Source of the DNA: a virus
Taxonomy: Duplodnaviria; Heunggongvirae; Uroviricota; Caudoviricetes
IMG/VR virus record: IMGVR_UViG_2695420427_000009
DNA length: 19,124 bases
Direction: 5' to 3' (one strand)
Below are positions 2,173-19,124 of this stretch, in pieces. The notes beneath the pieces were generated by a model. It was not told the origin of the DNA. It saw only the letters and a list, made by a program, of their open reading frames with translations, and made no database searches. Position 1 is the first letter of the stretch, and each line of letters begins with the position of its first letter. The position numbers and the translations under genes are program-made.

Positions 2173-2955
2173 CTATTTATTGGTGATTTCTGCTGGCTTT
2201 AGCTGCGCGGATAACTGCTCAAGTTTTTGAACTGCCAGTTCAAAATGCGCGGGTAACGCCTTTTCCAGATCAGAGTTAATATCGGTGATGGGTAAATCAC
2301 CACACGACATACTCCGCCTACCCCCACGAACAACATCACGCAACAACTCTCGTTCATACGTGCGCATGTTCCCCAATGCCGACTCAGCAGCCGTCAAAAT
2401 CCGGCGCAGTTCTGCCGTAATTGCTGGCAAATCATCAACCGTTATGGGGTTCGGGGATGGATTACGACACGCCCGACGCAAAGCTAACCATACACCGCTA
2501 ATCCAGGCATTTCGGTACTGAAAACTTTGTGCTATATCGTTAATCAGCCCTCGCAGATACTCTTTCTGCCTCCAGTTCAACGGCTCCGCTGCTCGCATTG
2601 GCTCAGGCTCGATGTAAACGTACTCTCCATTTTTGCGAATAGAGGGCAAGACTTCGTTCGTTACCCATTTGCGAAACCGCCAAGCTGTTGTGCCTTGCTT
2701 CACCGCGTCACGGCAGCGGAGGATCAGGGTGTATAGACCTGACTCTGAAATAATATTTAGCTTTTGCTCTCCGCCAGGGGTGTAACTTAAAGTTACACCC
2801 TTTTCATCCTCATCCAGAGACATTAGCGCCTTCCGGGAATTAACGAGTCTTAAAGCATCACATACATCCTTAGCCACAAACCACGGCTCACCGTTAATCA
2901 TCACTACACGAACCTGATGCTCTTCCTGAAAGGAAAAGACTGCTAACGCGCTCAT
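2173..2955 (-). CDS. BRO-N domain protein, antirepressor-like (260 aa)
   Basis: N-terminus FSFQEEHQVRVVMINGEPWFVAKDVCDALRL...EKGV...GGEQKLNIISESGLYTLIL...WVTNEVLPSIRKNG is a typical BRO-N / P22 Ant N-terminal-like domain; start overlaps the stop of the upstream ORF (operon). Confidence 0.75.
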   Translation of the reverse strand: MSALAVFSFQEEHQVRVVMINGEPWFVAKDVCDALRLVNSRKALMSLDEDEKGVTLSYTPGGEQKLNIISESGLYTLILRCRDAVKQGTTAWRFRKWVTNEVLPSIRKNGEYVYIEPEPMRAAEPLNWRQKEYLRGLINDIAQSFQYRNAWISGVWLALRRACRNPSPNPITVDDLPAITAELRRILTAAESALGNMRTYERELLRDVVRGGRRSMSCGDLPITDINSDLEKALPAHFELAVQKLEQLSAQLKPAEITNK

Positions 2956-3185
2956 TCAGCCTCCTTATCGCGCAGCAAGTGCGACGAGAGAGACGCAGAA
3001 TATCCCTGTGCTTCATGCGTTAACTCACACGCAATCTGCAGAAGTTTTCCAGCCTCTGAGAGGTAAATCGACGCCTCACAACTGGAGACTGTCCGATGGG
3101 CTGATGATACGAGCGCATAGACCTGAGCCAGACGTTCATCCAACGATTCCAGCAGGCCAACAGTGTTCATTTTTACCTGATTCAT
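2952..3185 (-). CDS. Hypothetical protein, 77 aa, middle gene of ant operon
   Basis: ORF translationally coupled at both ends (its ATG overlaps the stop of the Icd-like ORF; its stop overlaps the start of the BRO-N ORF); no recognisable motif. Confidence 0.5.
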   Translation of the reverse strand: MNQVKMNTVGLLESLDERLAQVYALVSSAHRTVSSCEASIYLSEAGKLLQIACELTHEAQGYSASLSSHLLRDKEAE

Positions 3186-3346
3186 GCAGCCACCTCGCGC
3201 ACCGGAATACGGGCAGACAATACCAGGACAAACCGGCTGGCGAACTGGCGACGAGCTTCCCGTTCAGATGACGCGATAGTGGAAAGATGATGAATGTGGG
3301 ACTTTTTGTCTGTGCGAACGACTGCCGCAAATTTGAATTTGAACAT
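3182..3346 (-). CDS. Icd-like small protein (54 aa), candidate cell-division inhibitor
   Basis: Hand-translated ORF MFKFKFAAVVRTDKKSHIHHLSTIASSEREARRQFASRFVLVLSARIPVREVAA, below the ORF-track length cutoff; GGAG RBS 9 nt upstream; stop overlaps ATG of next gene (ATGA); the F.F.AV.R...EREARR...F.L...AR.PV pattern matches my recollection of P1 Icd-like proteins. Confidence 0.5.
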   Translation of the reverse strand: MFKFKFAAVVRTDKKSHIHHLSTIASSEREARRQFASRFVLVLSARIPVREVAA

Positions 3347-5357: not shown

Positions 5358-5549
5358 TTACTCCCCGTTCACCGAAAAATCACGATAGAAACGTTTCCAC
5401 ATACGATAAGTCTGCGCGAGTTGTTCACCACGAAACATCGCCTTCCTGGCCTTCATGTTTTCCTTGTGAGACTTTCGATCTATGAACCAAAACCATTGCT
5501 GGAACACACAAAGCAAGAGACACAAAGATAATATCCACTGATTACCCAT
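5358..5549 (-). CDS. Putative small single-TM protein (63 aa), possibly coupled to repA
   Basis: In-frame ATG 2 nt after the repA stop codon gives MGNQWILSLCLLLCVFQQWFWFIDRKSHKEN..., a hydrophobic helix plus basic tail; the longer 102-aa form in the ORF track would overlap repA by about 125 nt. Confidence 0.35.
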   Translation of the reverse strand: MGNQWILSLCLLLCVFQQWFWFIDRKSHKENMKARKAMFRGEQLAQTYRMWKRFYRDFSVNGE

Positions 5550-8500
5550 AGAAAGCGCCCTGCTCTTCGTAGCTGCATGGGCTATTCCCGGTAATGTATT
5601 CACGTAACCGCCGCAGTTCATTGCTGGATAAGTGATCCATGAACTCTGTGAGGTACAGAGATGCAAACGTCATAGCTATGCTAGCTGATGACCATGATGA
5701 CATAGTGGCCAGCTCCTCACCGGAAAGCGCACTCATCGCCCAGGACTCAGGTACAACCACTGGCAACACAGCCAAAGCCTCAGAAATTACTGAATGAGGG
5801 GCGTTTTGAACCTGCTCGTTTGTGGATCGCGTTTTATCATCCATATATATATTGAGATCCAAATCGCGATCCATTTCGATGGCGGTCTTCTCGGCTTTAC
5901 GCGTTTTCAGGGTTAGGCCATCTTTCTGACGCTGAGCAAGAATATCCAGCATAAATGCCGCTGATTCAGGCTCAACAAAACGCAAGGTTGGACGCTTATC
6001 GCCGTCTCTGCCGCGACGTTTACCTGTTTTAAGGCCAAGAGAGTCGCAAATGTTTTTAAACAACGCTTCCGGCACTTTAGGCTTCCCTTTTGGCGTCATA
6101 AAACCACCAATGTGCAGAACGTTATTCAACAGGTCACGGCGTTCGGCTGTCATGAGGTTATCTCGAGCAAATTTGAGACGCTCCTGAGTCGCCTCGCCGG
6201 TCATAGTCTCAGGGTTGATACCGCAGTCGATAAAGTACTGCCGGAGAGTTGCTGATTTAAGCGCATAGAAACCGCGCGCCCCGACTTCAACAGTAGGAGT
6301 AGCTTTTACCTTGTGATCGATTATTCCAGGGAATTTAGTTTTAAAGACATCATCAGCCTGCTCGCGAGTCATCGCGGTCACTACAAAATATTGCCACTGT
6401 CCCGCCTGACGGTATGCGTAGGTAAAATTGATGGCTGCTTCTTCCCGGTCGTAACGACGAGCTGTTACCTCATCTAAAAGCATTGTTTCATAGCGGCGAA
6501 CTTTGTCTCGAGCACCATCGAAATAGAATTTCAGCGTGCCTTCTTCAACCGGTAGTTTCAGTTCGTTTTCAATATCCCAGCGGACAAGTTTTGCCTGTTC
6601 TTCAAGCGTCAGCGCGCGTTTTTTTAGCAGTTCTTCACGCTCTGATTCTTGTGGAGTTTCTGTATTGAGATGCAGATCCAGTGTCTGTTCCCACACAATA
6701 TCCCGCGCTTCTTTACGCAGCTCTTTACCGATATCATTCGCAGCATAATCGGTGGCCAGCGGCGATACCTTATAACCGTCGCTGTGCATGATGCAGATCA
6801 TGTTGCTGGCGTAGTCGTTACGCGCAGTCGCTTCAATAGCGGCTGCTTTAATTTTCATCCTGGTAAAGTCGGTATTGGCCACCCCCATTGATATACGGTC
6901 GCCATCGAAAACGACATCCGTCAGTTCACCGTTCATACCTGCGGTAGCAAGCAATGCCTGGGCGAATGCTCGTTCTATTTTTTGCGGGTCAGTTTCACGT
7001 TTTGCACGAGCTTTATCAAAGCCGATAATAAATTCTTTTGCTGTACGGTCGCGGCGTAGCATTTGCACTGCGTCGCTGGGTACAACTTCACCACAGAACA
7101 TGCCGAAATGACGGTCAAAATGTTTTTGCTCAATCGACACGCCGGATGAAATAGACGGGCTATAAATCAGGCCGTCGTATTTTTTGACCATCTTTTTCGG
7201 TTGATTGGTAAATGCTTCAACTTCTGGCTCTGGTTTGTTTTTCTGGTTTACACACAGAAATTTCTTACCAGGAAAATGCATTCTCAGGGTGGCGGTCACA
7301 TCTTCTGCAAAGGTGGAGCTGTCGGTGGCCAACATGATTTTTTCGCCATTCGATACAGCTTTCACCACCTCGGTCATAATGCGATCTTTTTCTGTATAAA
7401 AAACCCGGATTGGCTCACCTGTTTCGCGGTTGCGAACATCAACAGGTAATTCAATTACGTGGATCTGCAGCCATGCCGGTAAACCTAGTTCTTCACGGCG
7501 TTTCATAGCCAGTTCAGCCAGGTCAACCAGCAGATCGTTCGCATCAGCATCCACCATTATTGGGTGTTGTTCCGTTCTGGCCAGCGCGTCAATTAACGTA
7601 TTGAATACAGCCACCGGGTTTTCCATAGCCCGACCGGAAAGAACGGCACGTAGCCCTTGCGTGGCCTCGTCAAAGCCAAAATAGTCGTGCTGGCGCATCA
7701 ATGGTTGCCAGCAGTTTTTAACAATCGAGTTTATGCAGATGGTCAGTTTACTGGCGTATGGAGCCATTTCCTGATAGCCAGGGTCCTGATAGTGCAGGAT
7801 ATCGGCTTTTACACCTTTTCCTTCTGTCATCATTTCCCACAGGCCACCAATAAGGGAAACACGGTGAGCAACAGAGATACCACGTTCTGAGCTATGCATT
7901 AAAGGTCGTAACAATCCAGTAGATTTGCCGGAACCCATACCAGCACGAACGATGACTATCCCCTGTAGTGATTGCACATACTTCAGGACGTCATCGGTCA
8001 TTACCGAAGTTTCAAAACGCTTATAGGTGATATGTTGAGGACGTTTATTGGGATCAGTTATTCGTTCGCTGAATGAGCGCGGAGCCTGGGCAATACGGCA
8101 CTTTTTATTCAGGCGACGGGCAATGTGGTCTTTTACCGTAGCGCGATAGATATTTTCCAGCCCAATTTCACGCAGGGCGATGCAGAACATGTTAAATAAG
8201 TCTGACGGACTGTTAGGAACCGGACAGGTTAGCATGCCAATATCCACTGCTCTCAGCAGCTCTTTGGCAAAAGTACGACGGTTATCCCGCTTAATTGTCT
8301 TCAGGCGGTTGAGCGTCAGAGATAGCAAATCAGTGCCAGTTTTCAGGCGGTTTGCAGTTGCAAACAGTTGACGTGCTGTTTCACGAAGTCCACGTAGTTT
8401 GTGCAGGTCGTTGAAGTCACTGCACTCCATTTGCGGATCGTCTTCAAAAGTTGGATAGACGCAGCGGACATCGTTGAATTTCGATAAGATTTCATAGCCA

Positions 8501-9537
8501 GTCCGCAGGCCGGTATTCCCTTTTCCTTCTGTAGCTGATTTCCGGTCATTATCCAGTGCGCAGGTGATTTTTGCCGCCGGGTACATGTTTACCAGTTGTT
8601 CCACAACATGAACCATGTTGTTAGCGGATACAGCGACAACCACAGCGTCAAAGCGTTTATCTTTTTTCGTGGCAAGCCAGATGGATGCACCAGTAGCAAA
8701 ACCTTCTGTAACAGCGATGTTTTGCGCCCCTTTCAGCTCACCGATAACAAAGCAGGCACCGACGAAATCGCCGCTGGTTACGGCGCTGGTCTGGTATTTT
8801 CCACCTTGTTTGTCGATTCGCTGCCAACCAACAATACGACCATCGTAACGACCGTCCAGGTGAGCCAGAGGGATAGCCATATACGTGGTTGGCCCCCTGC
8901 TCCATTTTGCGCTGTCGTGACTGGTCACGCGACGCACATCACACGAATTAAAAACGTCACGAATACCTTTTTTAATCGCATATGGCCATGAGCCGTCTTC
9001 TGCAGGAGCATGTTCCCAAGCACTGTGGAATGCCAGCCATCCCAGCAAACGTTCATGGTCCATTTGGTTGTTTTTCAGGTCATTAATTCGTTTTTGTTCT
9101 TCACGGCGACGACGTGCTTCGGCCTGACGTTCTATTCTTGCCCGTTCTTCTTCCGGTTGTGCGACCACGGTCGCATTATTCCGTTGTTGCTCACGGCGAT
9201 ATTCAGAAAACAGGAAGGAGAAACCGCTCCATGAGCCAGCATCGCTGCCTTTATGGACGAAGTTAATGAACGGGTAATCAATCCCTTTGCTGTGTTCCAG
9301 CCGGGAGTAAATTTCTACGCGTCCTTTGAGGCTCTTTTCGAGAGCTTCTGGGGATGTTTTATTGTATGAAGAGTAACGCTCAACACCCCCGCGAGGGTTG
9401 AGTTGGATGTTGTCGGAACAGGCAGACCAGTTGATACCAGCCATCTGTGCCAGCTCGGTTAGTTCATCCCGTGCTGCTTCAATTAGCGAGAACGGATCGC
9501 TGCCAAAGCGATCCGCATAGAAATCGTTTAATGTCAT
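5542..9537 (-). CDS. repA: Replication protein RepA, primase-helicase (1331 aa)
   Basis: Size matches N15 RepA (~1320 aa); N-terminal primase-like region with acidic motifs (TEGFATGASI, ALDNDRKS); central Walker A VRAGMGSGKST; located between the ant region and cB as in N15. Confidence 0.9.
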   Translation of the reverse strand: MTLNDFYADRFGSDPFSLIEAARDELTELAQMAGINWSACSDNIQLNPRGGVERYSSYNKTSPEALEKSLKGRVEIYSRLEHSKGIDYPFINFVHKGSDAGSWSGFSFLFSEYRREQQRNNATVVAQPEEERARIERQAEARRRREEQKRINDLKNNQMDHERLLGWLAFHSAWEHAPAEDGSWPYAIKKGIRDVFNSCDVRRVTSHDSAKWSRGPTTYMAIPLAHLDGRYDGRIVGWQRIDKQGGKYQTSAVTSGDFVGACFVIGELKGAQNIAVTEGFATGASIWLATKKDKRFDAVVVAVSANNMVHVVEQLVNMYPAAKITCALDNDRKSATEGKGNTGLRTGYEILSKFNDVRCVYPTFEDDPQMECSDFNDLHKLRGLRETARQLFATANRLKTGTDLLSLTLNRLKTIKRDNRRTFAKELLRAVDIGMLTCPVPNSPSDLFNMFCIALREIGLENIYRATVKDHIARRLNKKCRIAQAPRSFSERITDPNKRPQHITYKRFETSVMTDDVLKYVQSLQGIVIVRAGMGSGKSTGLLRPLMHSSERGISVAHRVSLIGGLWEMMTEGKGVKADILHYQDPGYQEMAPYASKLTICINSIVKNCWQPLMRQHDYFGFDEATQGLRAVLSGRAMENPVAVFNTLIDALARTEQHPIMVDADANDLLVDLAELAMKRREELGLPAWLQIHVIELPVDVRNRETGEPIRVFYTEKDRIMTEVVKAVSNGEKIMLATDSSTFAEDVTATLRMHFPGKKFLCVNQKNKPEPEVEAFTNQPKKMVKKYDGLIYSPSISSGVSIEQKHFDRHFGMFCGEVVPSDAVQMLRRDRTAKEFIIGFDKARAKRETDPQKIERAFAQALLATAGMNGELTDVVFDGDRISMGVANTDFTRMKIKAAAIEATARNDYASNMICIMHSDGYKVSPLATDYAANDIGKELRKEARDIVWEQTLDLHLNTETPQESEREELLKKRALTLEEQAKLVRWDIENELKLPVEEGTLKFYFDGARDKVRRYETMLLDEVTARRYDREEAAINFTYAYRQAGQWQYFVVTAMTREQADDVFKTKFPGIIDHKVKATPTVEVGARGFYALKSATLRQYFIDCGINPETMTGEATQERLKFARDNLMTAERRDLLNNVLHIGGFMTPKGKPKVPEALFKNICDSLGLKTGKRRGRDGDKRPTLRFVEPESAAFMLDILAQRQKDGLTLKTRKAEKTAIEMDRDLDLNIYMDDKTRSTNEQVQNAPHSVISEALAVLPVVVPESWAMSALSGEELATMSSWSSASIAMTFASLYLTEFMDHLSSNELRRLREYITGNSPCSYEEQGAFYG
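5824..5872. other. Origin-like structure inside the 3-prime part of repA: inverted repeat GGATCGCG / CGCGATCC flanking AT-rich CATATATATATT, with three GATC sites
   Basis: Seen directly in sequence; N15 ori is reported to lie within the 3-prime part of repA (established knowledge); exact correspondence not verifiable here. Confidence 0.3.
8916..8929. repeat. Palindrome CGTGAC-tg-GTCACG (copy 2 of palindrome family B), inside repA coding sequence
   Basis: Exact 12-mer GTGACTGGTCAC shared with 14851-14862 and, in opposite orientation, with 3650-3661. Confidence 0.6.
9158..9175. other. SopB-type centromere-like palindrome TGTGCGACC-ac-GGTCGCA (copy 1 of family A), inside repA coding sequence
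   Basis: Arms TGCGACC / GGTCGCA with 2-bp centre; 6 of 7 arm positions match the F-plasmid sopC core TGGGACC-AC-GGTCCCA as I recall it; same element at 11602 and 16589. Confidence 0.6.
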
Positions 9538-9782: not shown

Positions 9783-10379
9783 TCATCTACCCTCAACCAT
9801 GAATGATTTGATCGTTCCGACTATTTGGTGAACAAATTCAAGATCGCTTTTCCTGAAGATAGCGCGTTGTGAATTTGTTCCGTCCAGATAGTAATTTTCA
9901 TCATCAAAACGGGCCAGGCGCTGGATGGTGATATTTCCTGCAGTATCACGAACCAGAACATCCTCGCCGGGGACCAGTTCCAGCGCAGAATCGACCAGGA
10001 GAAAATCGCCAGGCTGATAGTTTCCCTGCGCCAGATTGCTGATAGTTAACGCATAAACAGTATTGCGCTGGCTGATGAATGGCAGGAATCGCTCAGTATT
10101 TGGAACCTGTCCTGGCTTCCACTCTTCATCAGGTCCACTTTCAGTTGTGCCAATAACAGGAATGCGATCAGGGTCATATTCTGTCCCATACAGCACCCAA
10201 TGCACTGGCTTGCGTAAGCATTTAGCCAGGGCAATACCTATCTCCAGTGACGGCATTACGTCGCCACGTTCTAAGTTTTGGACGCCTGCAATAGAGATAT
10301 CGACAGCCTCAGCAACTTCTCGCAACGTCAGCTTCATCTCTAAACGGCGTGCTTTCAGTCGTTCGCCTCGTGTTTTCAT
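9783..10379 (-). CDS. cB: Prophage repressor CB (cI-like; N-terminal HTH_XRE, C-terminal S24/LexA-like fold), 198 aa
   Basis: HTH LTLREVAEAVDISIAGVQNLERG at the N-terminus; divergent from the Cro-like gene across an operator-bearing intergenic region; size matches N15 CB. Confidence 0.8.
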   Translation of the reverse strand: MKTRGERLKARRLEMKLTLREVAEAVDISIAGVQNLERGDVMPSLEIGIALAKCLRKPVHWVLYGTEYDPDRIPVIGTTESGPDEEWKPGQVPNTERFLPFISQRNTVYALTISNLAQGNYQPGDFLLVDSALELVPGEDVLVRDTAGNITIQRLARFDDENYYLDGTNSQRAIFRKSDLEFVHQIVGTIKSFMVEGR

Positions 10380-10443: not shown

Positions 10444-10692
10444 ATGAGATTTATTGCTTATAATAACCGCATGAAACCAGAAGAACTTATTCGCCACTTT
10501 GGCAGTGTAGAAAAAGCAGCGGCTGGGGTAGGTGTAACACCCGGTGCTGTTTACCAATGGTTAACCGCTGGAGAGATTCCTTCATTGCGGCAAAGTGATA
10601 TTGAAGTTCGTACTGCTTACAAGCTGAAGAGTGACTTTACAACTCGGCGGGTAAAGCAGTCGATTAAGGAGAGCCGTAAGCGTGGAGCTTGA
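10444..10692 (+). CDS. cro: Cro-like HTH regulator (82 aa)
   Basis: Small ORF divergent from cB with HTH SVEKAAAGVGVTPGAVYQWL; an alternative start at M10 (10471) is possible. Confidence 0.7.
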   Translation: MRFIAYNNRMKPEELIRHFGSVEKAAAGVGVTPGAVYQWLTAGEIPSLRQSDIEVRTAYKLKSDFTTRRVKQSIKESRKRGA

Positions 10693-11392
10693 GTATATAC
10701 GCAGCTGCGTCTCCACGGCATTGGCTGATATTCATTATCGCCAGCGTGGCATCCTAGAGGTCCAGCTTGAGCAGATGCGTCTAGGCAGATCAGGACGCTT
10801 TAACAATAAACCAGTCCGGTCAATCAGTGTAGGTGATGATAACTCATACGAAGTGTCCGTTCCTGCTGAGCCGGTTAGATTCCACCAGGGGAAAACATTT
10901 AAACAATCATCAATGTTGCTCACTGATATTGATTTTCAGAGCGCCAGCTGGCGCAGGGCTATTGGTCAGTTGAATAACGAGGAATCAGCCTGGCTTTATT
11001 ATTGCTACGGATGCAAGCCTGATTACAACAATGATGTGATTGTTTGTCAGTGGTTATGGCTTGATTTTCTGGTTGCTCATTCGGGGGGCGGCTTTAAAAA
11101 AATGAAGGCCTCCACGAAAAAAGCCATGCGGAAATTGATTTATTACGCGGCACAGCAGGTTAAATCAGAACTTACGTGTGCTGAGGCAGTTGATGAGAGA
11201 GAACAGGACAGGCATCTGAGTTTTCTACTGAATATATCTATTGATAGCTGGAGACAAGATTATAAAGAACGCTGGCTTTTAATTAAGTCGCGATGTCTGA
11301 GCTTAAATCGAACTGCATTATTAAATGCGGCGGAGAAGCGCAGTGAAATCATCAAACGCCATCGGGCAGGAAGTGCCATTCTGCCTTTGTAA
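10682..11392 (+). CDS. Q-like putative late-gene antiterminator (236 aa from GTG 10682; first in-frame ATG at 10775)
   Basis: Assigned mainly by synteny (cB-cro-Q order as in N15 and lambdoid phages) and a Cys-containing motif YYCYGC; no motif I can verify by eye. Confidence 0.4.
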   Translation: MELEYIRSCVSTALADIHYRQRGILEVQLEQMRLGRSGRFNNKPVRSISVGDDNSYEVSVPAEPVRFHQGKTFKQSSMLLTDIDFQSASWRRAIGQLNNEESAWLYYCYGCKPDYNNDVIVCQWLWLDFLVAHSGGGFKKMKASTKKAMRKLIYYAAQQVKSELTCAEAVDEREQDRHLSFLLNISIDSWRQDYKERWLLIKSRCLSLNRTALLNAAEKRSEIIKRHRAGSAILPL

Positions 11393-15358: not shown

Positions 15359-15646
15359 TCAATAGACGGCATTAATATTAATCGTTGCACCGCATGCTTG
15401 GGCATATTTTGATAAAGTTTTCATGCTTGCCCCTAAAGGATTGCTTTCCAGGCGGCTGATAGCTGACGGGCGCAATCCCATTCGTTCAGCCAGAGCTGAC
15501 TTCGTTAAACCTGCTCTTTCCCTCATTTCGTATAACATTTCGACCATCTCCAGCTCTTTATCGGCCTCTTCATATCCTTTGATGGCTTCTGGAGTGTTGA
15601 GAAGTTTTTCTTTTACTTCGTTAAACGGGATGCCTTTCGCTTTCAT
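15359..15646 (-). CDS. HigA-like antitoxin, HTH_XRE family (95 aa)
   Basis: HTH LTKSALAERMGLRPSAISRLE; start overlaps toxin stop (TGATG); located downstream of toxin as in HigBA-type modules. Confidence 0.75.
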   Translation of the reverse strand: MKAKGIPFNEVKEKLLNTPEAIKGYEEADKELEMVEMLYEMRERAGLTKSALAERMGLRPSAISRLESNPLGASMKTLSKYAQACGATININAVY

Positions 15647-15957
15647 CAGTTCATCTCCTTCAGGCGAGTTCTGGCGATTTCGATAGCCTTCACCGGTGTT
15701 TTCTGTGTCTTTTTTACAAATGCATGCAATAGATAAATTTCGTTACCAGTCGCGTAGGCGTACAGCGTTCTTGCGATGTTTTTATCCCCTACTCGTAGTT
15801 CAAAAAGCCCTCCACCTATTACACGGCTATGGGGCATCTTCAGTTTGTTGCCTTCTTTCTCCAGTCGCTCAATTAATCTGGTCATGCGACCTCGCAAATC
15901 ATCTGGTAGTTCAAGCAGTTCATCCAGTGCTGCAGGGTGGGTTATCACGTTAAACAT
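15646..15957 (-). CDS. RelE/ParE-superfamily toxin, HigB-like / phage Gp49-like (103 aa)
   Basis: GGAGG RBS 8 nt upstream; sequence ...GGGLFELRVGDKNIARTLYAYATGNEIYLLHAFVKKTQKTP matches the Gp49-like toxin pattern; toxin-first gene order. Confidence 0.75.
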   Translation of the reverse strand: MFNVITHPAALDELLELPDDLRGRMTRLIERLEKEGNKLKMPHSRVIGGGLFELRVGDKNIARTLYAYATGNEIYLLHAFVKKTQKTPVKAIEIARTRLKEMN

Positions 15958-16122: not shown

Positions 16123-16344
16123 ATGAATTATCAAGGTAACGAAAAAATGCGCGACGACGTTGCGGAGATAGCTAACGAACTGTATGAGTTGTGGCAGAAG
16201 GTTGAACGTTTCGAAAAGGAATATGGTTTCAACAGTACCAACCTAGCAGACCGACTGGCTGGTCGCTTAGTTGGGACTATGGGGCCAAAACTGGCTGAGT
16301 TGAACCGCTTTATGGCTGATGTTGATTTCCAGTTTCAAGATTGA
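16123..16344 (+). CDS. Hypothetical protein (73 aa from ATG 16123; ORF track starts at 16105)
   Basis: GGAGGA RBS lies inside the 16105 ORF, 6 nt upstream of the second ATG, so 16123 is the more likely start. Confidence 0.5.
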   Translation: MNYQGNEKMRDDVAEIANELYELWQKVERFEKEYGFNSTNLADRLAGRLVGTMGPKLAELNRFMADVDFQFQD

Positions 16345-16357
16345 TTAGAGAGGCGTT

Positions 16358-16585
16358 ATGAATATTAATGAAATTCGTGGAAATATGACTGAAGCGGCCC
16401 TGAGTGTGGAATGTGTTATGCGTGGATACCCACGCATTTCCCTGAAAGAGTTAAGCGAAGCCTGTTTTTTGAGTCAAGCTGCCGTTGAATTTATCATCGA
16501 ACAGATGATCTGTTTTGGGGTTGCAAAGCGTAGCGGGTCTGGTCGATATTCTTTGACCGATGAATATAAGCAGGCAACTTTCTAA
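16358..16585 (+). CDS. Small putative winged-helix DNA-binding protein (75 aa)
   Basis: RBS GAGAGG upstream; sequence ...ISLKELSEACFLSQAAVEFIIEQMICFGVAKRSGSGRYSLT resembles small wHTH regulators; weak assignment. Confidence 0.45.
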   Translation: MNINEIRGNMTEAALSVECVMRGYPRISLKELSEACFLSQAAVEFIIEQMICFGVAKRSGSGRYSLTDEYKQATF

Positions 16586-16588
16586 AAA

Positions 16589-16610
16589 CTGTGCGACCAC
16601 GGTCGCACAG
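16589..16610. other. SopB-type centromere-like palindrome CTGTGCGACC-ac-GGTCGCACAG (copy 3 of family A), intergenic
   Basis: Perfect 10-bp arms with 2-bp centre, 4 nt after the stop of the 16358 ORF. Confidence 0.65.
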
Positions 16611-16693
16611 CACAAAAACGAAAAAGCTTGGCAAAATGACGGTTTTTAGTTATTGTTTTGTTAAGTTGGGTTTTTTGTACCCAATAGATAACA

Positions 16694-16717
16694 AGCCGCC
16701 TTTATGGCGGTTTTTTT
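16694..16717 (+). terminator. Intrinsic terminator (AGCCGCC-tttat-GGCGG followed by T7)
   Basis: GC stem followed directly by TTTTTTT on the plus strand. Confidence 0.6.
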
Positions 16718-16734
16718 GTGCCTGAAAAGTGGGC

Positions 16735-16760
16735 GCAGGACAAGTTGCAGCTTGTCCTGC
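16735..16760. promoter_or_regulatory. Strong hairpin / palindrome GCAGGACAAG-ttgcag-CTTGTCCTGC
   Basis: Perfect 10-bp stem, 6-nt loop; no U tract; upstream of the methyltransferase gene. Confidence 0.4.
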
Positions 16761-16803
16761 GGTCAACCCATGCCAGAGCTATAGGCTGAACCTAAAGCCC
16801 ACC

Positions 16804-16817
16804 CGCGATGCGCATCG
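16804..16817. promoter_or_regulatory. Perfect 14-bp palindrome GCGATGCGCATCGC immediately upstream of the methyltransferase
   Basis: Seen directly; overlaps the alternative upstream ATG (16808) of the methyltransferase ORF. Confidence 0.4.
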
Positions 16818-16852
16818 CCGGGTTAGCTTACCCAGGCAAAAAAATAATAGCT

Positions 16853-17929
16853 ATGTTCAAAACCACTAATATTCATGGCGCACAACTCGTTTGCGCAGAT
16901 TCTCTGCAATTTATCAAAACCATCCCTGATAACTCGGTCAATTTGATTGCAACAGACCCACCATACTTCGGCGTAAAGGCTAACGCATGGGATAACCAGT
17001 GGGATAGCGATGCTGACTTTTTGGGGTGGATTGACGAATTTTTGGCAGAATTTTGGCGGATATTGGCCCCTAATGGCAGCCTGTATATGTTTACCGGCTC
17101 TCGCCTTGCGTCAAAAATTGAATTATTAACTCGCGACCGTTTCAATGTTCTGAACCATATCATTTGGGCTAAACCCAGTGGTATGTGGCGCGGTTGTCAT
17201 AAAGAAAGTTTAAGGGCTTATTTTCCTGCTACTGAAAGAATATTATTTGCAGAGCATTACGGCACGTCAGGTTATGCTAAAGGTCAGTCAGGTTATGCTT
17301 CAAAATGTGCAGATTTAAGAAAAAATATTTTTTCTCCACTAATTGATGCTTTTTCGCTGGCTCGCCGTCAGTTAGATATATCAGCCGCAGACATTAATTC
17401 AGCGACAGGAAAGCAGATGTGTTCACACTGGTTTTCTTATTCGCAGTGGCGGCTTCCATCATTAATTGATTTTAATAAACTATGCGAATTATTTCGCAGG
17501 AAGGCAGATTCACTCGGTGTCCCGTGTCCATATCCTTTTAATGTTGATTATTCAGAACATGAAAAGCGTTATAGCGATCTGAAATTGCATTATGAGGAAG
17601 AAAAGAAGCAGTATGATGATTTGAAGGCTCAGTATGAAAATTTACGCCGTCCATTTCATGTTACTGCTGATGTACCTTATACCGATGTATGGGAGTTTCC
17701 TCCTGTGCAATATTATCCTGGCAAGCACCCATGTGAAAAACCTGCAGCGATGATGGAACATATTATAAAGAGTAGTTCACGCCCCGGAGATATCGTTGCC
17801 GATTTCTTTATGGGATCAGGCTCAACTATTAAAGCTGCGCTGAAGTTAGGACGTCAGGCAATAGGTATTGAGATTGAGGGCGAACGTTATCTTCAGACAG
17901 TTGATGAAGTGAAAAAGTTATTTGAGTAA
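16853..17929 (+). CDS. Orphan DNA methyltransferase, beta-class (N6-adenine or N4-cytosine; motif IV DPPY before motif I FxGxG), 358 aa
   Basis: N-terminal DPPY and C-terminal FFMGSGST with an intervening target-recognition region; no restriction endonuclease partner visible; start could be the upstream ATG at 16808. Confidence 0.75.
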   Translation: MFKTTNIHGAQLVCADSLQFIKTIPDNSVNLIATDPPYFGVKANAWDNQWDSDADFLGWIDEFLAEFWRILAPNGSLYMFTGSRLASKIELLTRDRFNVLNHIIWAKPSGMWRGCHKESLRAYFPATERILFAEHYGTSGYAKGQSGYASKCADLRKNIFSPLIDAFSLARRQLDISAADINSATGKQMCSHWFSYSQWRLPSLIDFNKLCELFRRKADSLGVPCPYPFNVDYSEHEKRYSDLKLHYEEEKKQYDDLKAQYENLRRPFHVTADVPYTDVWEFPPVQYYPGKHPCEKPAAMMEHIIKSSSRPGDIVADFFMGSGSTIKAALKLGRQAIGIEIEGERYLQTVDEVKKLFE

Positions 17930-17943
17930 CTGGAGAATATATT

Positions 17944-17972
17944 CCCCTGCCGTTTTTGGTAGGGGTTATTTT
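17944..17972 (+). terminator. Probable intrinsic terminator after the methyltransferase (CCCCTGCC-gttttt-GGTAGGGG followed by TTATTTT)
   Basis: Stem with G-U pairs followed by a U-rich tract, 15 nt after the stop codon. Confidence 0.45.
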
Positions 17973-18024
17973 CGCCATATAGTTTCCAAGCCGAAACCTC
18001 AGCAACTATTGCGAGGTAAGAGAT

Positions 18025-18297
18025 ATGAAGATGGATGAACGATACAGCAGTGCATCTTATGGTAGCGCTGGTCTTGCTGCGTTCTTTGCCAGCCTGTCAT
18101 TGCAGGATTGGGGCTTCATTATCGGTGTCGCGTTCAGCATTATCCTCGGTGTGCTTACATACCGGCTCAATAAACGCGAGCAGATGAAGCGCACGAAGAT
18201 ATTGCAGGACATATTGGATAAAACTAATACCAATAATCTTTCTGCTACAGCGATGGTTATTGGAGAGCTGGGGAAGAGAGCACCGAAGGAAATATGA
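18025..18297 (+). CDS. Class II holin / pinholin-like (90 aa) with dual-start motif
   Basis: RBS GAGG; N-terminus M-K-M (Met1-Lys2-Met3 dual start); two TM segments ([13 protein letters not shown] and [18 protein letters not shown]); immediately upstream of the endolysin with overlapping start/stop. Confidence 0.75.
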
Positions 18298-18794
18298 TGC
18301 AGTCATCATTACGCAAAGCTGTCACAGCTGCTATTGGTGGCGGGGCTATTGCCATAGCATCTGTGCTCATCTCTGGTCCGAGCGGCAACGATGGTCTGGA
18401 AGGTGTGAGACATAACCCCTACAAAGACATCGTTGGTGTATGGACTGTATGTTACGGGCATACAGGAAAAGACATTATGCTCGGTAAAACGTATACCGAA
18501 GCAGAATGCAAAGCTCTCCTGAATAAAGACCTTGCTACTGTCGCCAGACAAATTAACCCGTACATCAAAGTCGATATACCGGAAACAACGCGTGGTGCTC
18601 TTTACTCGTTCGTTTACAACGTGGGTGCAGGCAATTTCAGAACATCGACACTTCTTCGCAAAATCAACCAGGGCGATATCAAAGGTGCATGTGATCAACT
18701 ACGTCGCTGGACATATGCTGGCGGTAAGCAATGGAAAGGGCTGATGACTCGCCGTGAGATTGAGCGTGAAGTCTGTTTGTGGGGGCAGCAATGA
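18294..18794 (+). CDS. SAR endolysin, T4-lysozyme-like muramidase (166 aa)
   Basis: N-terminal signal-anchor-release segment [20 protein letters not shown]; catalytic pattern E-x8-D-x5-T in [16 protein letters not shown]. Confidence 0.8.
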
Positions 18795-19124
18795 GCAGAG
18801 TAACCGCAATTATCTCCGCACTGGTTATCTGCATCATCGTCTGCCTGTCGTGGGCTGTTAATCATTACCGTGATAACGCCATCGCCTACAAAGAACAGCG
18901 TGATAAAAAAGTCAGTGAGCTGAAGCAGGCGACCGCCACCATCGCTGACATGCAGCAGCGTCAGCGTGATGCTGATGCACTTGATGCTAAATACACGAAG
19001 GAGTTAGCTGATGCGAAAGCTGAAAATGATGCTCTTCGGCGCAAGCTTGATAATGGTGGTCGGGTGCTCGTCAAAGGAAAATGCCCTGTGCCATCCTCAG
19101 CCGAAACCTCCAGCGCCTCCGGCA
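18791..19124 (+). CDS. Rz: Rz i-spanin (3-prime truncated by window end)
   Basis: ATGA overlap with the endolysin stop; [30 protein letters not shown]... N-terminal TM plus coiled-coil-like periplasmic region; closely resembles lambda Rz as I recall it. Confidence 0.8.
19026..19124 (+). CDS. Rz1: Rz1 o-spanin lipoprotein embedded in the +1 frame of Rz (3-prime truncated)
   Basis: Hand translation [33 protein letters not shown]: lipobox VVGC followed by Pro-rich segment; entirely inside Rz in a different frame. Confidence 0.7.

Follow-up and report, generated by a model that had tools for sequence, protein, structure and literature searches.

Positions 18025-19124 of the window (by which we mean the whole stretch of DNA that was analysed, 19,124 nucleotides) hold a four-gene lysis cassette composed of holin, endolysin, Rz and Rz1, all of them on the plus strand and with coordinates that were rechecked by translation. 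This cassette is most likely an ordinary pinholin-type lysis module carried by a linear plasmid-prophage of E. coli that resembles N15, the pinholin part being predicted from homology, and we consider it quite probable that this telomere phage-plasmid uses the same lysis route as phage 21, with a pinholin, a SAR endolysin and a two-component spanin. The genes, their order and overlaps, their homology, their motifs and their conservation are supported directly. The four reading frames are intact within the window and are accompanied by Shine-Dalgarno (SD) sequences and overlapping stop and start codons. A chance origin of the cassette is dismissed on the similarity of the endolysin to R21 (E 3e-104) and of the holin to phrog_1350 (E 1.5e-30). 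Only the holin was not previously known; the rest of the cassette belongs to already known types. The importance of the result is mainly in annotation, with little beyond: a protein annotated as 'hypothetical protein' in the majority of the records listed, and in 13 of the 15 complete E. coli replicons among them, could be described as a probable pinholin with an antiholin.

Endolysin and spanins

The endolysin gene (18297..18794, plus strand) encodes a GH24 lysozyme of 165 aa (PF00959, E 5e-48). Its ATG at 18297 corresponds to Met1 of R21, and the PhiR46_1 annotation places the start there too, while an alternative ATG at 18294 would give a protein of 166 aa. The protein is 93.3% identical to R21 (PDB 3HDE; the R21 structures are 3HDE and 3HDF) and 94.5% identical to RrrD (4ZPU, E 5e-105), and the NCBIfam scan gave for it matches below cut-off only. 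The sequence-only reading had assigned to this endolysin an N-terminal SAR domain and an E-x8-D-x5-T catalytic pattern, and both were found. The putative SAR segment (18318-18374) is hydrophobic and rich in G/A/S (61% G/A/S/T over an 18-residue window), contains no Cys and differs from that of R21 at 2 of 19 residues, and the catalytic motif E35-x8-D44-x5-T50 (18399-18446) is intact. The E-x8-D-x5-T motif has been stated, and R21 named a SAR endolysin, in the literature (PMC9239132), and the phage 21 record names R21 likewise. According to its 93% identity to R21, the endolysin would be exported by Sec, tethered to the membrane and released on depolarisation. An antisense ORF (18309-18698, 129 aa, TTG start) was rejected as a gene, since its whole length is antisense to the endolysin gene, which is strongly conserved, and it is unsupported.

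Rz, the inner-membrane spanin subunit (18791..19124, plus strand, up to the window end), matched PF03245, the periplasmic coiled-coil domain (E 1e-18, 68 bits against a cut-off of 25.4), and phrog_13 (E 2e-53). Its start overlaps the endolysin stop (ATGA), and the part present in the window includes an N-terminal transmembrane domain (TMD; residues 4-23, 18800-18859) and Cys98. Rz1, the outer-membrane lipoprotein subunit (19011..19124, plus strand, also up to the window end; phrog_3198, E 1.9e-11), is preceded by the SD sequence AAGGAG (18997-19002), 8 nt upstream of its start, and has a VVGC lipobox (19056-19067) that ends in Cys19 and is followed at +2 by Ser, a residue that sorts to the outer membrane, and then by a proline-rich stretch. 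As (19011-18791) mod 3 = 1, Rz1 lies in the +1 frame of Rz. That an Rz1 with these features is nested in this frame, and that both spanins are cut by the window end, had already been noticed and proved right, 111 of 155 Rz codons and 38 of 68 Rz1 codons being present. Because just 38 of the 68 Rz1 residues are inside the window, the PF06085 score of the fragment (22.0 bits) falls below the cut-off of 27.9; the NCBIfam scan gave no model for Rz1. The start and the frame of the embedded gene are seen in the window and the end of Rz1 lies beyond 19124, the whole embedding being seen in 97%-identical relatives. In PhiR46_1 the full lengths are 155 aa for Rz and 68 aa for Rz1, which is wholly contained within Rz, and in one of these relatives (L001) the Rz1 gene stops 41 nt short of the Rz CDS end and its mature product has 8 prolines.

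The closest comparison for the cassette as a whole is phage 21 (OL657228), which has the same gene order and overlaps (S stop with R start, R stop with Rz start, and Rz1 in the +1 frame of Rz). Identities to the window proteins are 93% for the endolysin, 70% for Rz over the part present and 54% for Rz1, and in a direct comparison with phage 21 the C-terminal parts of both spanins were found to diverge. The Rz1 of lambda has 60 aa, compared to 68 aa here. The lambda spanins (PMC5295617) resemble those of the window in the N-terminal TMD of Rz, in its periplasmic cysteines (99 and 152 in lambda, 98 and 153 here), in the lipoylated Cys of Rz1 (20 in lambda, 19 here) and its second Cys (29 in lambda, 27 here), and in the presence of a signal sequence with a lipobox and of a proline-rich stretch. 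Moreover, Rz1 lies wholly within Rz in the +1 frame both in lambda and in the relatives of the window, which itself holds only the N-terminal parts.

The holin and its relatives

The holin gene (18025..18297, plus strand) encodes a class II holin whose long form has 90 aa and begins M1-K2-M3. It was identified from its ORF, from the match to phrog_1350 ('holin'), from homology to S21 and HP1 Hol, from hydropathy and from an AF2 model. By hydropathy, TMD1 comprises residues 8-26 (18046-18102) and TMD2 residues 29-46 (18109-18162), and many K and R residues are found in the tail (47-90), so that a small two-helix protein with a charged, net-positive C-terminal tail and an N-in/C-in topology is predicted. 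The AF2 model was of modest confidence (mean pLDDT 67) and was used for helix boundaries only, placing helices at residues 3-22, 26-66 and 72-85. The exact protein is found on at least 1000 public contigs.

An alignment with the S and R proteins of phage 21 had been suggested as a check on the cassette, and in the case of the holin blastp aligned it with S21 at 38% identity over 53 aa (E 4e-6), covering both TMDs. The identity to HP1 Hol is 26% over 54 aa, and hhalign with the family profile gave probabilities of 93.7% against S21 and 89.8% against HP1 Hol. The best Pfam match was PF16080 (HP1 holin; E 1.5e-5) with 25.3 bits against a gathering cut-off of 28.8, and PF04971 (P21 holin S) reached 22.0 bits against a cut-off of 26; these scores place the protein in neither of the two families. 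Precomputed PF16080 matches are recorded for many near-identical holin homologues. As the protein is below the Pfam cut-offs and the NCBIfam scan gave no model for it, its placement rests on pairwise and profile comparison of short, biased membrane segments. By these comparisons it is a distant relative of S21 and HP1 Hol or a subfamily of its own, and not an S21 orthologue. That it represents a third pinholin branch, between the S21 and HP1 families, is a tentative idea that we consider rather unlikely. The traits that distinguish it are a near-absent inter-helix loop and a long cytoplasmic tail that opens with LTYRLNxREQ, the most conserved block of the family, and this tail might mediate the timing or gating of the holes, replacing or adding to the exit of TMD1.

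The two named relatives bear on the function of this protein. S21 (in its forms S21-71 and S21-68) and the window holin are both class II proteins in which the dual start contributes Lys2, TMD1 is of weak hydrophobicity and a YG(T)SAG motif is found, and their second TMDs have in common IGVxxSxxLGxLTY. In the window holin, TMD1 has a mean Kyte-Doolittle value of 1.01, 68% G/A/S/T and Hessa free energies that sum to +5.5 kcal/mol, against 2.03 and -0.1 kcal/mol for the hydropathy and free energy of TMD2. The same asymmetry between TMD1 and TMD2 is found in S21, in which TMD1 has values of 0.39 and +8.3 kcal/mol. TMD1 is thus SAR-like by composition and could be able to leave the membrane. Within TMD2, G34-xxx-S38-xxx-G42 aligns column by column with G40, S44 and G48 of S21 by blastp, MAFFT and hhalign, and we take these three S21 residues to be those of its glycine zipper. 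Across the family, G30 and G34 never vary, and most members have S or G at position 38. The existence of a glycine-zipper motif in TMD2 of S21 has been described (PMC9025707). The two proteins differ in the loop between the TMDs, of ~2 residues here and ~7 in S21, and in the cytoplasmic tail, of ~44 residues with a predicted extra helix (72-85) here and ~16 in S21, so that their dynamics could differ.

S21, whose partner is a SAR endolysin, counts in the literature as the prototype of the pinholins (PMC9636201), and HP1 Hol kills cells without release of beta-galactosidase and also has a SAR endolysin as partner (PMC7312051). The Hol/Lys pair of the Haemophilus phage HP1, on which PF16080 is founded, likewise consists of a small two-helix holin directly before a SAR-type lysozyme (PMC7312051). 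HP1 Hol differs from the window holin in having 78 aa and neither a dual start nor an antiholin, with its sequence beginning at the position of the window Met3, and an N-in, C-out topology has been reported for the overexpressed protein (PMC7312051). The lack of a dual start and this unusual activated topology indicate that the family is mechanistically non-uniform. The HP1 lysozyme is closer to P1 Lyz than to R21 (PMC7312051).

The partners of the holin were compared in the nine homologue loci, phylogenetically non-independent, that have an intact downstream endolysin gene. In all nine, the encoded lysozyme has at its N-terminus a hydrophobic segment rich in G/A/S, located just ahead of the catalytic Glu and called SAR-like from its composition alone, and some of these segments could be cleavable signal peptides rather than SAR domains. 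These lysozymes are 32-85% identical to the window endolysin. A holin family that keeps exported SAR-type partners while the partners themselves are swapped offers a simple comparative argument for pinholin function. SAR-endolysin pairing is no proof of pinholes, because the large-hole holin P1 LydA also works with a SAR endolysin (PMC9025707). In fact, the 90-aa protein might be a class II holin of the canonical kind, with large and non-specific holes, whose position next to a SAR endolysin is fortuitous, and depolarisation would still free this endolysin; both LydA and LydC of P1 support lysis with a SAR endolysin, and holins and pinholins closely resemble each other in sequence (PMC9025707). 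This explanation would also fit a protein that is below both Pfam cut-offs and that, compared with S21, is longer in the tail and shorter in the loop, but both of its detectable named relatives, S21 and HP1 Hol, are reported as pinholins (PMC9636201, PMC7312051), the features linked to the pinhole pathway of S21 (weak hydrophobicity of TMD1, glycine zipper in TMD2) are all found, and none of the nine loci pairs the holin with a lysozyme devoid of an N-terminal hydrophobic segment. We therefore regard a large-hole holin as improbable. The predicted pinholin identity is well supported by homology and by the S21-like features, which suggest that the holes would be small. The pinholin/SAR-endolysin pairing that had been proposed by analogy to phage 21 is thus upheld at the level of sequence, and the analogy drawn to P1 is defensible, since a study of 2022 (PMC9025707) showed that LydD of P1 is a pinholin.

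The dual start of the holin

The M-K-M beginning that was recognised in the sequence-only reading is confirmed by the second ATG at 18031, from which a short form of 88 aa (MDERY...; 18031..18297, plus strand) can be translated; the corresponding sequence in S21 is MKSM. The long form is predicted to be the antiholin and the short form the active pinholin, the net side-chain charge of the N-terminus being 0 in the former and -1 in the latter. A dual start, that is, an upstream Met, K/R and a Met before D/E, is kept in all 21 aligned homologues, down to 45% identity. It has the form M-[KR]-(x)-M in 19 of the 21 as called, and in the two remaining ones, both of Moellerella, the codons ATG GGA TTA AGA ATG (MGLRM) provide an upstream Met in frame. 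The spacing of the motif varies (MKM, MRM, MRIM, MKWIGGMM, MGLRM), and its retention while the spacer changes fits better with selection on the motif than with plain inheritance.

Is it possible that a single start is used, with M-K-M being an ordinary N-terminus without antiholin function and the holin level alone setting the time of lysis? The example of HP1 Hol, a relative that lacks the dual start (PMC7312051) and begins at the Met3 position, would be in agreement with this, as would an upstream hairpin (see below) that on its own is statistically non-significant. Against it are the conservation of Met-K/R-Met before D/E in 21 of 21 homologues despite the changing spacer, the functionality of the dual-start motif in S21 and in lambda S (PMC9636201) and the delay of S21 pore formation by positive charge at the N-terminus (bioRxiv 10.1101/2021.04.20.440580). 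Use of a single start is, in our opinion, somewhat less probable still than a large-hole holin, and we favour translation of the holin from both starts.

The mRNA upstream of the first ATG could form the hairpin ACCUC-AGCAACUAUUGC-GAGGU (17996..18017, plus strand), whose 3' arm holds the SD sequence GAGG (18013-18016), 8 nt before the ATG of Met1. Hairpins whose 3' arm falls in the purine-rich sequence ahead of the first ATG were predicted in 9 of the 11 family members that were folded and also in S21, with stem sequences that differ among the members. The individual z-scores were between -0.1 and -2.3, none of them significant, and the whole stretch 17985-18075 folded no more stably than its shuffles (z -0.47). 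Such a hairpin may set the ratio between the two holin starts, and we report it as a weak comparative observation only.

Proposed lysis pathway and exchange of the module

A consensus scan found, at 16628..16720 (plus strand) and upstream of the methylase-lysis operon, a probable late promoter (TTGGCA-17-TATTGT) and, after it, a terminator hairpin (16693-16713) with a T-run. This stretch aligns with the -35 and -10 signals and the terminator stem-loop annotated in N15, which suggests that it probably has promoter and terminator function. A second terminator-like hairpin, CCCCTGCC-GTTTTT-GGTAGGGG plus a T-run (17944..17975, plus strand), was detected by the same kind of scan between the methylase and holin genes, and in N15 a stem-loop at the same relative position, the gap between genes 52 and 53, carries the annotation of putative terminator. 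Presumably, Q antitermination allows late transcription to pass the 17944..17975 hairpin, and the window carries a Q antiterminator gene (10682-11392; PF06323, E 2e-84). In phage 21, pR', a terminator and two tRNA genes precede the cassette and Q lies immediately upstream, whereas the window has a methylase gene and a second terminator in between, and its Q gene is ~5 kb away. An Rfam scan of 16300-19124 (E <= 1) gave only AgrB and ctRNA_pGA1, at chance level and far below the gathering score.

In the pathway that we propose, late transcription would start at the promoter upstream of the methylase gene and pass the two terminators, presumably by Q antitermination, and the holin mRNA would be translated from two starts, Met1 giving the 90-aa form with the extra Lys and Met3 the 88-aa form. 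Both forms would enter the inner membrane as two-helix hairpins, from which the weakly hydrophobic first helix would later exit, the long form being the slower in this step. Through its G-xxx-S-xxx-G face, the second helix would then assemble small channels that collapse the membrane potential. The endolysin, exported by Sec and anchored in inactive form at the periplasmic face through its N-terminal SAR segment, would be freed by this depolarisation, refold in the manner of R21 and cleave the murein. A P1-type disulfide switch would not apply because the SAR segment has no Cys. Finally, Rz in the inner membrane and Rz1, the outer-membrane lipoprotein, would disrupt the outer membrane. The pinhole size, the exit of TMD1, the use of both starts and the read-through of the terminators are the steps that we infer.

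That the cassette is instead a decaying remnant in a cryptic element such as DLP12, with its lysis role lost, is very unlikely: the endolysin closest by identity is RrrD of that cryptic prophage and in one homologue locus, from Yersinia ruckeri, the endolysin gene is frameshifted, but the four frames are intact within the window, with their SD sequences and stop/start overlaps, the exact holin protein occurs on so many contigs, the protelomerase, replication, repressor and Q genes of the window are intact, and PhiR46_1 and YDC107_1, deposited as complete phage genomes, carry the same cassette at 97% DNA identity.

The element that carries this module is of the same kind as N15 (NC_001901), with a protelomerase, a RepA-like primase, a CB-like repressor and Q. 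N15 also shares the layout of the operon (promoter, terminator, adenine methylase gene, terminator, holin, lysozyme and spanin), and its promoter and terminator DNA is homologous to that of the window. The lysis genes 53, 54 and 55 of N15 differ from those of the window, which indicates that the module has been exchanged. N15 gp54 is 33% identical to the window endolysin, and gp55 is a DUF2514 protein whereas the window has a lambda-type Rz with an embedded Rz1. N15 gp53 (101 aa) was considered as a holin relative and rejected, as blastp gave no match. Similarity of the DNA to lambdoid phages begins at ~18304, that is, at the holin/endolysin boundary. N15-like phage-plasmids thus exchange lysis modules with lambdoid phages at this boundary.

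The holin also appears to re-assort freely among N15-like, P22-like, lambdoid and P2-like phages, each time beside lysozymes that would be exported. In Moellerella, the family member is located in a P2/HP1-like late operon, between the tail-X and lysozyme genes.

Organisation of the lysis cassette

The plus-strand region 18025-19124 contains four closely packed reading frames according to the sequence, the ORFs and their translation, and the coordinates and descriptions given in the sequence-only reading were all correct. The holin gene (18025-18297, +) codes for 90 amino acids and has GAGG 8 nt 5' of its first ATG; the M-K-M beginning attributed to it is indeed present (M1-K2-M3). The lysozyme gene follows (18294-18794, +) with two neighbouring ATGs at 18294 and 18297, the latter of which is aligned with Met1 of R21 (the SAR endolysin of phage 21), is the annotated start in the closest phage record and has the better spacing from GAAGGA. 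The ATG of Rz (from 18791, +) overlaps the lysozyme stop, and Rz1 (from 19011, +) is preceded by AAGGAG. As had been noticed, both genes extend past the window end, Rz after 111 codons and Rz1 after 38, and Rz1 is nested in the +1 frame of Rz (220 mod 3 = 1). An antisense ORF of 129 aa with a TTG start opposite the endolysin gene (18309-18698, minus strand) was rejected as being without support and most likely spurious.

The endolysin matches PF00959 (E 5e-48) and is 93.3% identical to R21 and 94.5% identical to RrrD from prophage DLP12, whose structures have been solved (3HDE and 3HDF for R21, 4ZPU for RrrD). Its N-terminal 19-residue segment is without Cys and presents two conservative differences from that of R21, and the catalytic motif E35-x8-D44-x5-T50 is intact (motif and SAR domain as defined in PMC9239132), in agreement with the SAR domain and the E-x8-D-x5-T pattern originally described. 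Its identification as a SAR endolysin is as secure as homology can make it, and export and release of this kind are predicted from it.

Regarding the spanins, Rz matches PF03245 (68 bits) and phrog_13 (E 2e-53), has a TMD at residues 4-23 and a cysteine at position 98 (Cys98), and is 70% identical to phage 21 Rz over the part present. Rz1 matches phrog_3198 (E 1.9e-11) and carries the expected VVGC lipobox (VVG followed by C19), with Ser at +2 and a second Cys at 27, together with a proline-rich stretch of 10 residues. In Escherichia phage PhiR46_1, which is 97% identical over the cassette DNA stretch, Rz has 155 aa with its second Cys at 153, and Rz1 has 68 aa, lies wholly within Rz and has 8 prolines in its mature part. 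These features agree with the descriptions of lambda Rz/Rz1 (PMC5295617), the comparison that had been proposed.

The holin and its relatives

The holin is the sole part of the cassette that was not already known. It is named 'hypothetical protein' in most sources, its identical sequence being present on at least 1000 contigs, and it falls below the gathering cut-off of both nearest Pfam families, PF16080 (HP1 holin family; 25.3 vs 28.8) and PF04971 (P21 holin S family; 22.0 vs 26). The NCBIfam scan gave no model for it, and PHROGs placed it in phrog_1350 'holin' (E 1.5e-30). When aligned with the phage 21 holin S21 (taken from the phage 21 genome record), as had been recommended for both phage 21 proteins, it showed 38% identity (E 4e-6) across 53 residues that take in both membrane segments, and a profile of 21 family members aligned to S21 with 93.7% probability (hhalign); the values for Hol of Haemophilus phage HP1 were 26% over 54 residues and 89.8%.

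As in S21, the two membrane segments are asymmetric in hydrophobicity, TMD1 (residues 8-26) being weakly hydrophobic (mean KD 1.0, G/A/S/T 68%, Hessa sum +5.5 kcal/mol) and TMD2 (residues 29-46) strongly so (KD 2.0, -0.1 kcal/mol). Furthermore, G34-xxx-S38-xxx-G42 in TMD2 is in register with G40, S44 and G48, which we take to be the glycine-zipper residues of S21. A glycine zipper is present in TMD2 of S21 (PMC9025707). The dual start amounts to one extra N-terminal positive charge (net 0 in the long form from Met1, the predicted antiholin, vs -1 in the short form from Met3, the predicted pinholin). An AF2 model of modest confidence has helices at 3-22, 26-66 and 72-85. The protein differs from S21 in its inter-helix loop of ~2 residues and its tail of ~44 residues, and the start of this tail, LTYRLNxREQ, is the most conserved block of the family.

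Both S21 and HP1 Hol are reported to be pinholins with SAR endolysin partners (PMC9636201, PMC7312051): S21-68 forms heptameric channels of ~2 nm and is no substitute for lambda S (PMC9636201), and HP1 Hol causes cell death without lysis or beta-galactosidase leakage (PMC7312051). The proposal of a pinholin/SAR-endolysin pairing as in phage 21 was supported as an interpretation, with one refinement: the holin is not orthologous to S21 but forms a branch of its own, largely unannotated and related to the S21 and HP1 pinholins alike. The comparison with P1 is acceptable because P1 LydD is a pinholin (PMC9025707). In Moellerella (loci L012 and L013, 2501-2761), a member of the family lies inside a P2/HP1-like late operon (capsid, small terminase, gpL, tail-X, holin, lysozyme, Rz-like, gpR, gpS); the label 'potassium channel protein' that one source gives it is probably a mis-annotation.

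Proposed lysis pathway and alternatives

The cassette is a further example of a well-known type of system. In the best-supported reading, which we consider quite likely, an antiholin and pinholin pair would set the time of membrane depolarisation, the R21-type SAR endolysin would next be released and refold, and the embedded Rz/Rz1 spanin would finish lysis. Because SAR endolysins can function together with canonical holins too, P1 LydA being an example (PMC9025707), a large-hole holin in place of the pinholin was considered, and we find it rather unlikely. Ten homologue loci were inspected for the partner lysozyme, from Salmonella phages UPF_BP1 and 29485, Providencia phage PSTCR3, Proteus phage BPM-V3, Rahnella, Yersinia aleksiciae, Moellerella and two Y. 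ruckeri prophages, and nine had an intact gene, in every case starting a few bases at most from the holin stop. The partner lysozymes are 32-85% identical to that of the window, including N15 gp54-like ones, and all nine, from loci that are not independent, present a G/A/S-rich hydrophobic N-terminal segment directly before the catalytic Glu (SAR vs cleavable signal peptide judged by composition only); none of the nine is a plain cytoplasmic lysozyme. In Y. ruckeri CP084643, the SAR lysozyme gene of one prophage copy (L014, ~2777-3330) is frameshifted directly after an intact holin gene, and the other copy (L015) is intact.

A single functional holin start was entertained because HP1 Hol is without a dual start (PMC7312051), and appears improbable. 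An M-[K/R]-(0-5 residues)-M-D/E start was found in 19 of the 21 called homologues, down to ~56% identity (MKM, MRM, MRIM, MRWIGGVM and MKWIGGMM). The other two, both from Moellerella, are called from MDELY but have an in-frame ATG GGA TTA AGA ATG (MGLRM) directly upstream in the DNA. Conservation of the motif while the sequence varies points to selection on it. Decay of the cassette is very improbable.

A 9-bp interrupted hairpin at 17996-18017 is predicted to sequester the GAGG Shine-Dalgarno. Similar hairpins, with the 3' arm within the purine-rich stretch directly 5' of the first ATG, were predicted in 9 of 11 folded family members and upstream of S21; their stem sequences differ, and none was individually significant against shuffles. 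Lambda has an sdi element, of which the 17996-18017 hairpin is, tentatively, a possible counterpart.

Host element and upstream operon

The whole window is an N15-like linear phage-plasmid, with genes for a protelomerase with TelK domains (106-2001), a BRO-N protein (2173-2955, minus), a RepA-like primase of 1331 aa (5542-9537, minus), an HTH/S24 repressor (9783-10379, minus) and a Q antiterminator (10682-11392). The Escherichia phages that match it best are PhiR46_1 and YDC107_1, of which YDC107_1 is assigned to Ravinvirus; the top 15 E. coli entries listed are replicons 36-75 kb long. N15 shares the layout (promoter, terminator, adenine methylase gene, terminator, holin, lysozyme, spanin) and its promoter and terminator DNA can be aligned with the window; however, its lysis genes differ: gp53 has no match to the window holin, gp54 shares 33% identity with the endolysin, and gp55 belongs to the DUF2514 proteins. 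By megablast, over 250 lambdoid and P22-like phages resemble the window from ~18304 onwards, 8-10 bases into the endolysin gene, from which we infer a mosaic module joined where holin and endolysin meet. At the DNA level, only two phage records share the holin and the sequence upstream of it, and as a protein the holin is present in only 7 of 50,697 phage records.

A promoter-like site, TTGGCA-17-TATTGT, followed by a strong terminator hairpin (16628-16720), aligns with the N15 promoter signals and terminator stem-loop annotated upstream of gene 52. Together they probably represent the late promoter under Q control and the first terminator of the methylase-lysis operon; the Q gene lies ~5 kb upstream. 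Between this terminator and the methylase gene, the very conserved leader contains a 10-bp inverted repeat (16727-16760), GCAGGACAAG-TTGCAG-CTTGTCCTGC, whose stem in N15 differs by two compensatory changes and one mismatch and which had no above-threshold match in Rfam. For the adenine methylase ORF (PF01555, 16808-17929) the start is ambiguous: the longest ORF runs from 16808 (MRIAG..., 1122 nt), as annotated in PhiR46_1, the YDC107_1 annotation begins at the equivalent of 16853 (MFKTT...), and that of N15 more internally (855 nt vs 1122 nt). Finally, a Gp49-like ORF (DUF891, PF05973; 15646-15957) followed by a 95-aa ORF, a helix-turn-helix protein by the YDC107_1 annotation, on the minus strand at 15359-15957 looks like a HigB/HigA-type toxin-antitoxin pair.
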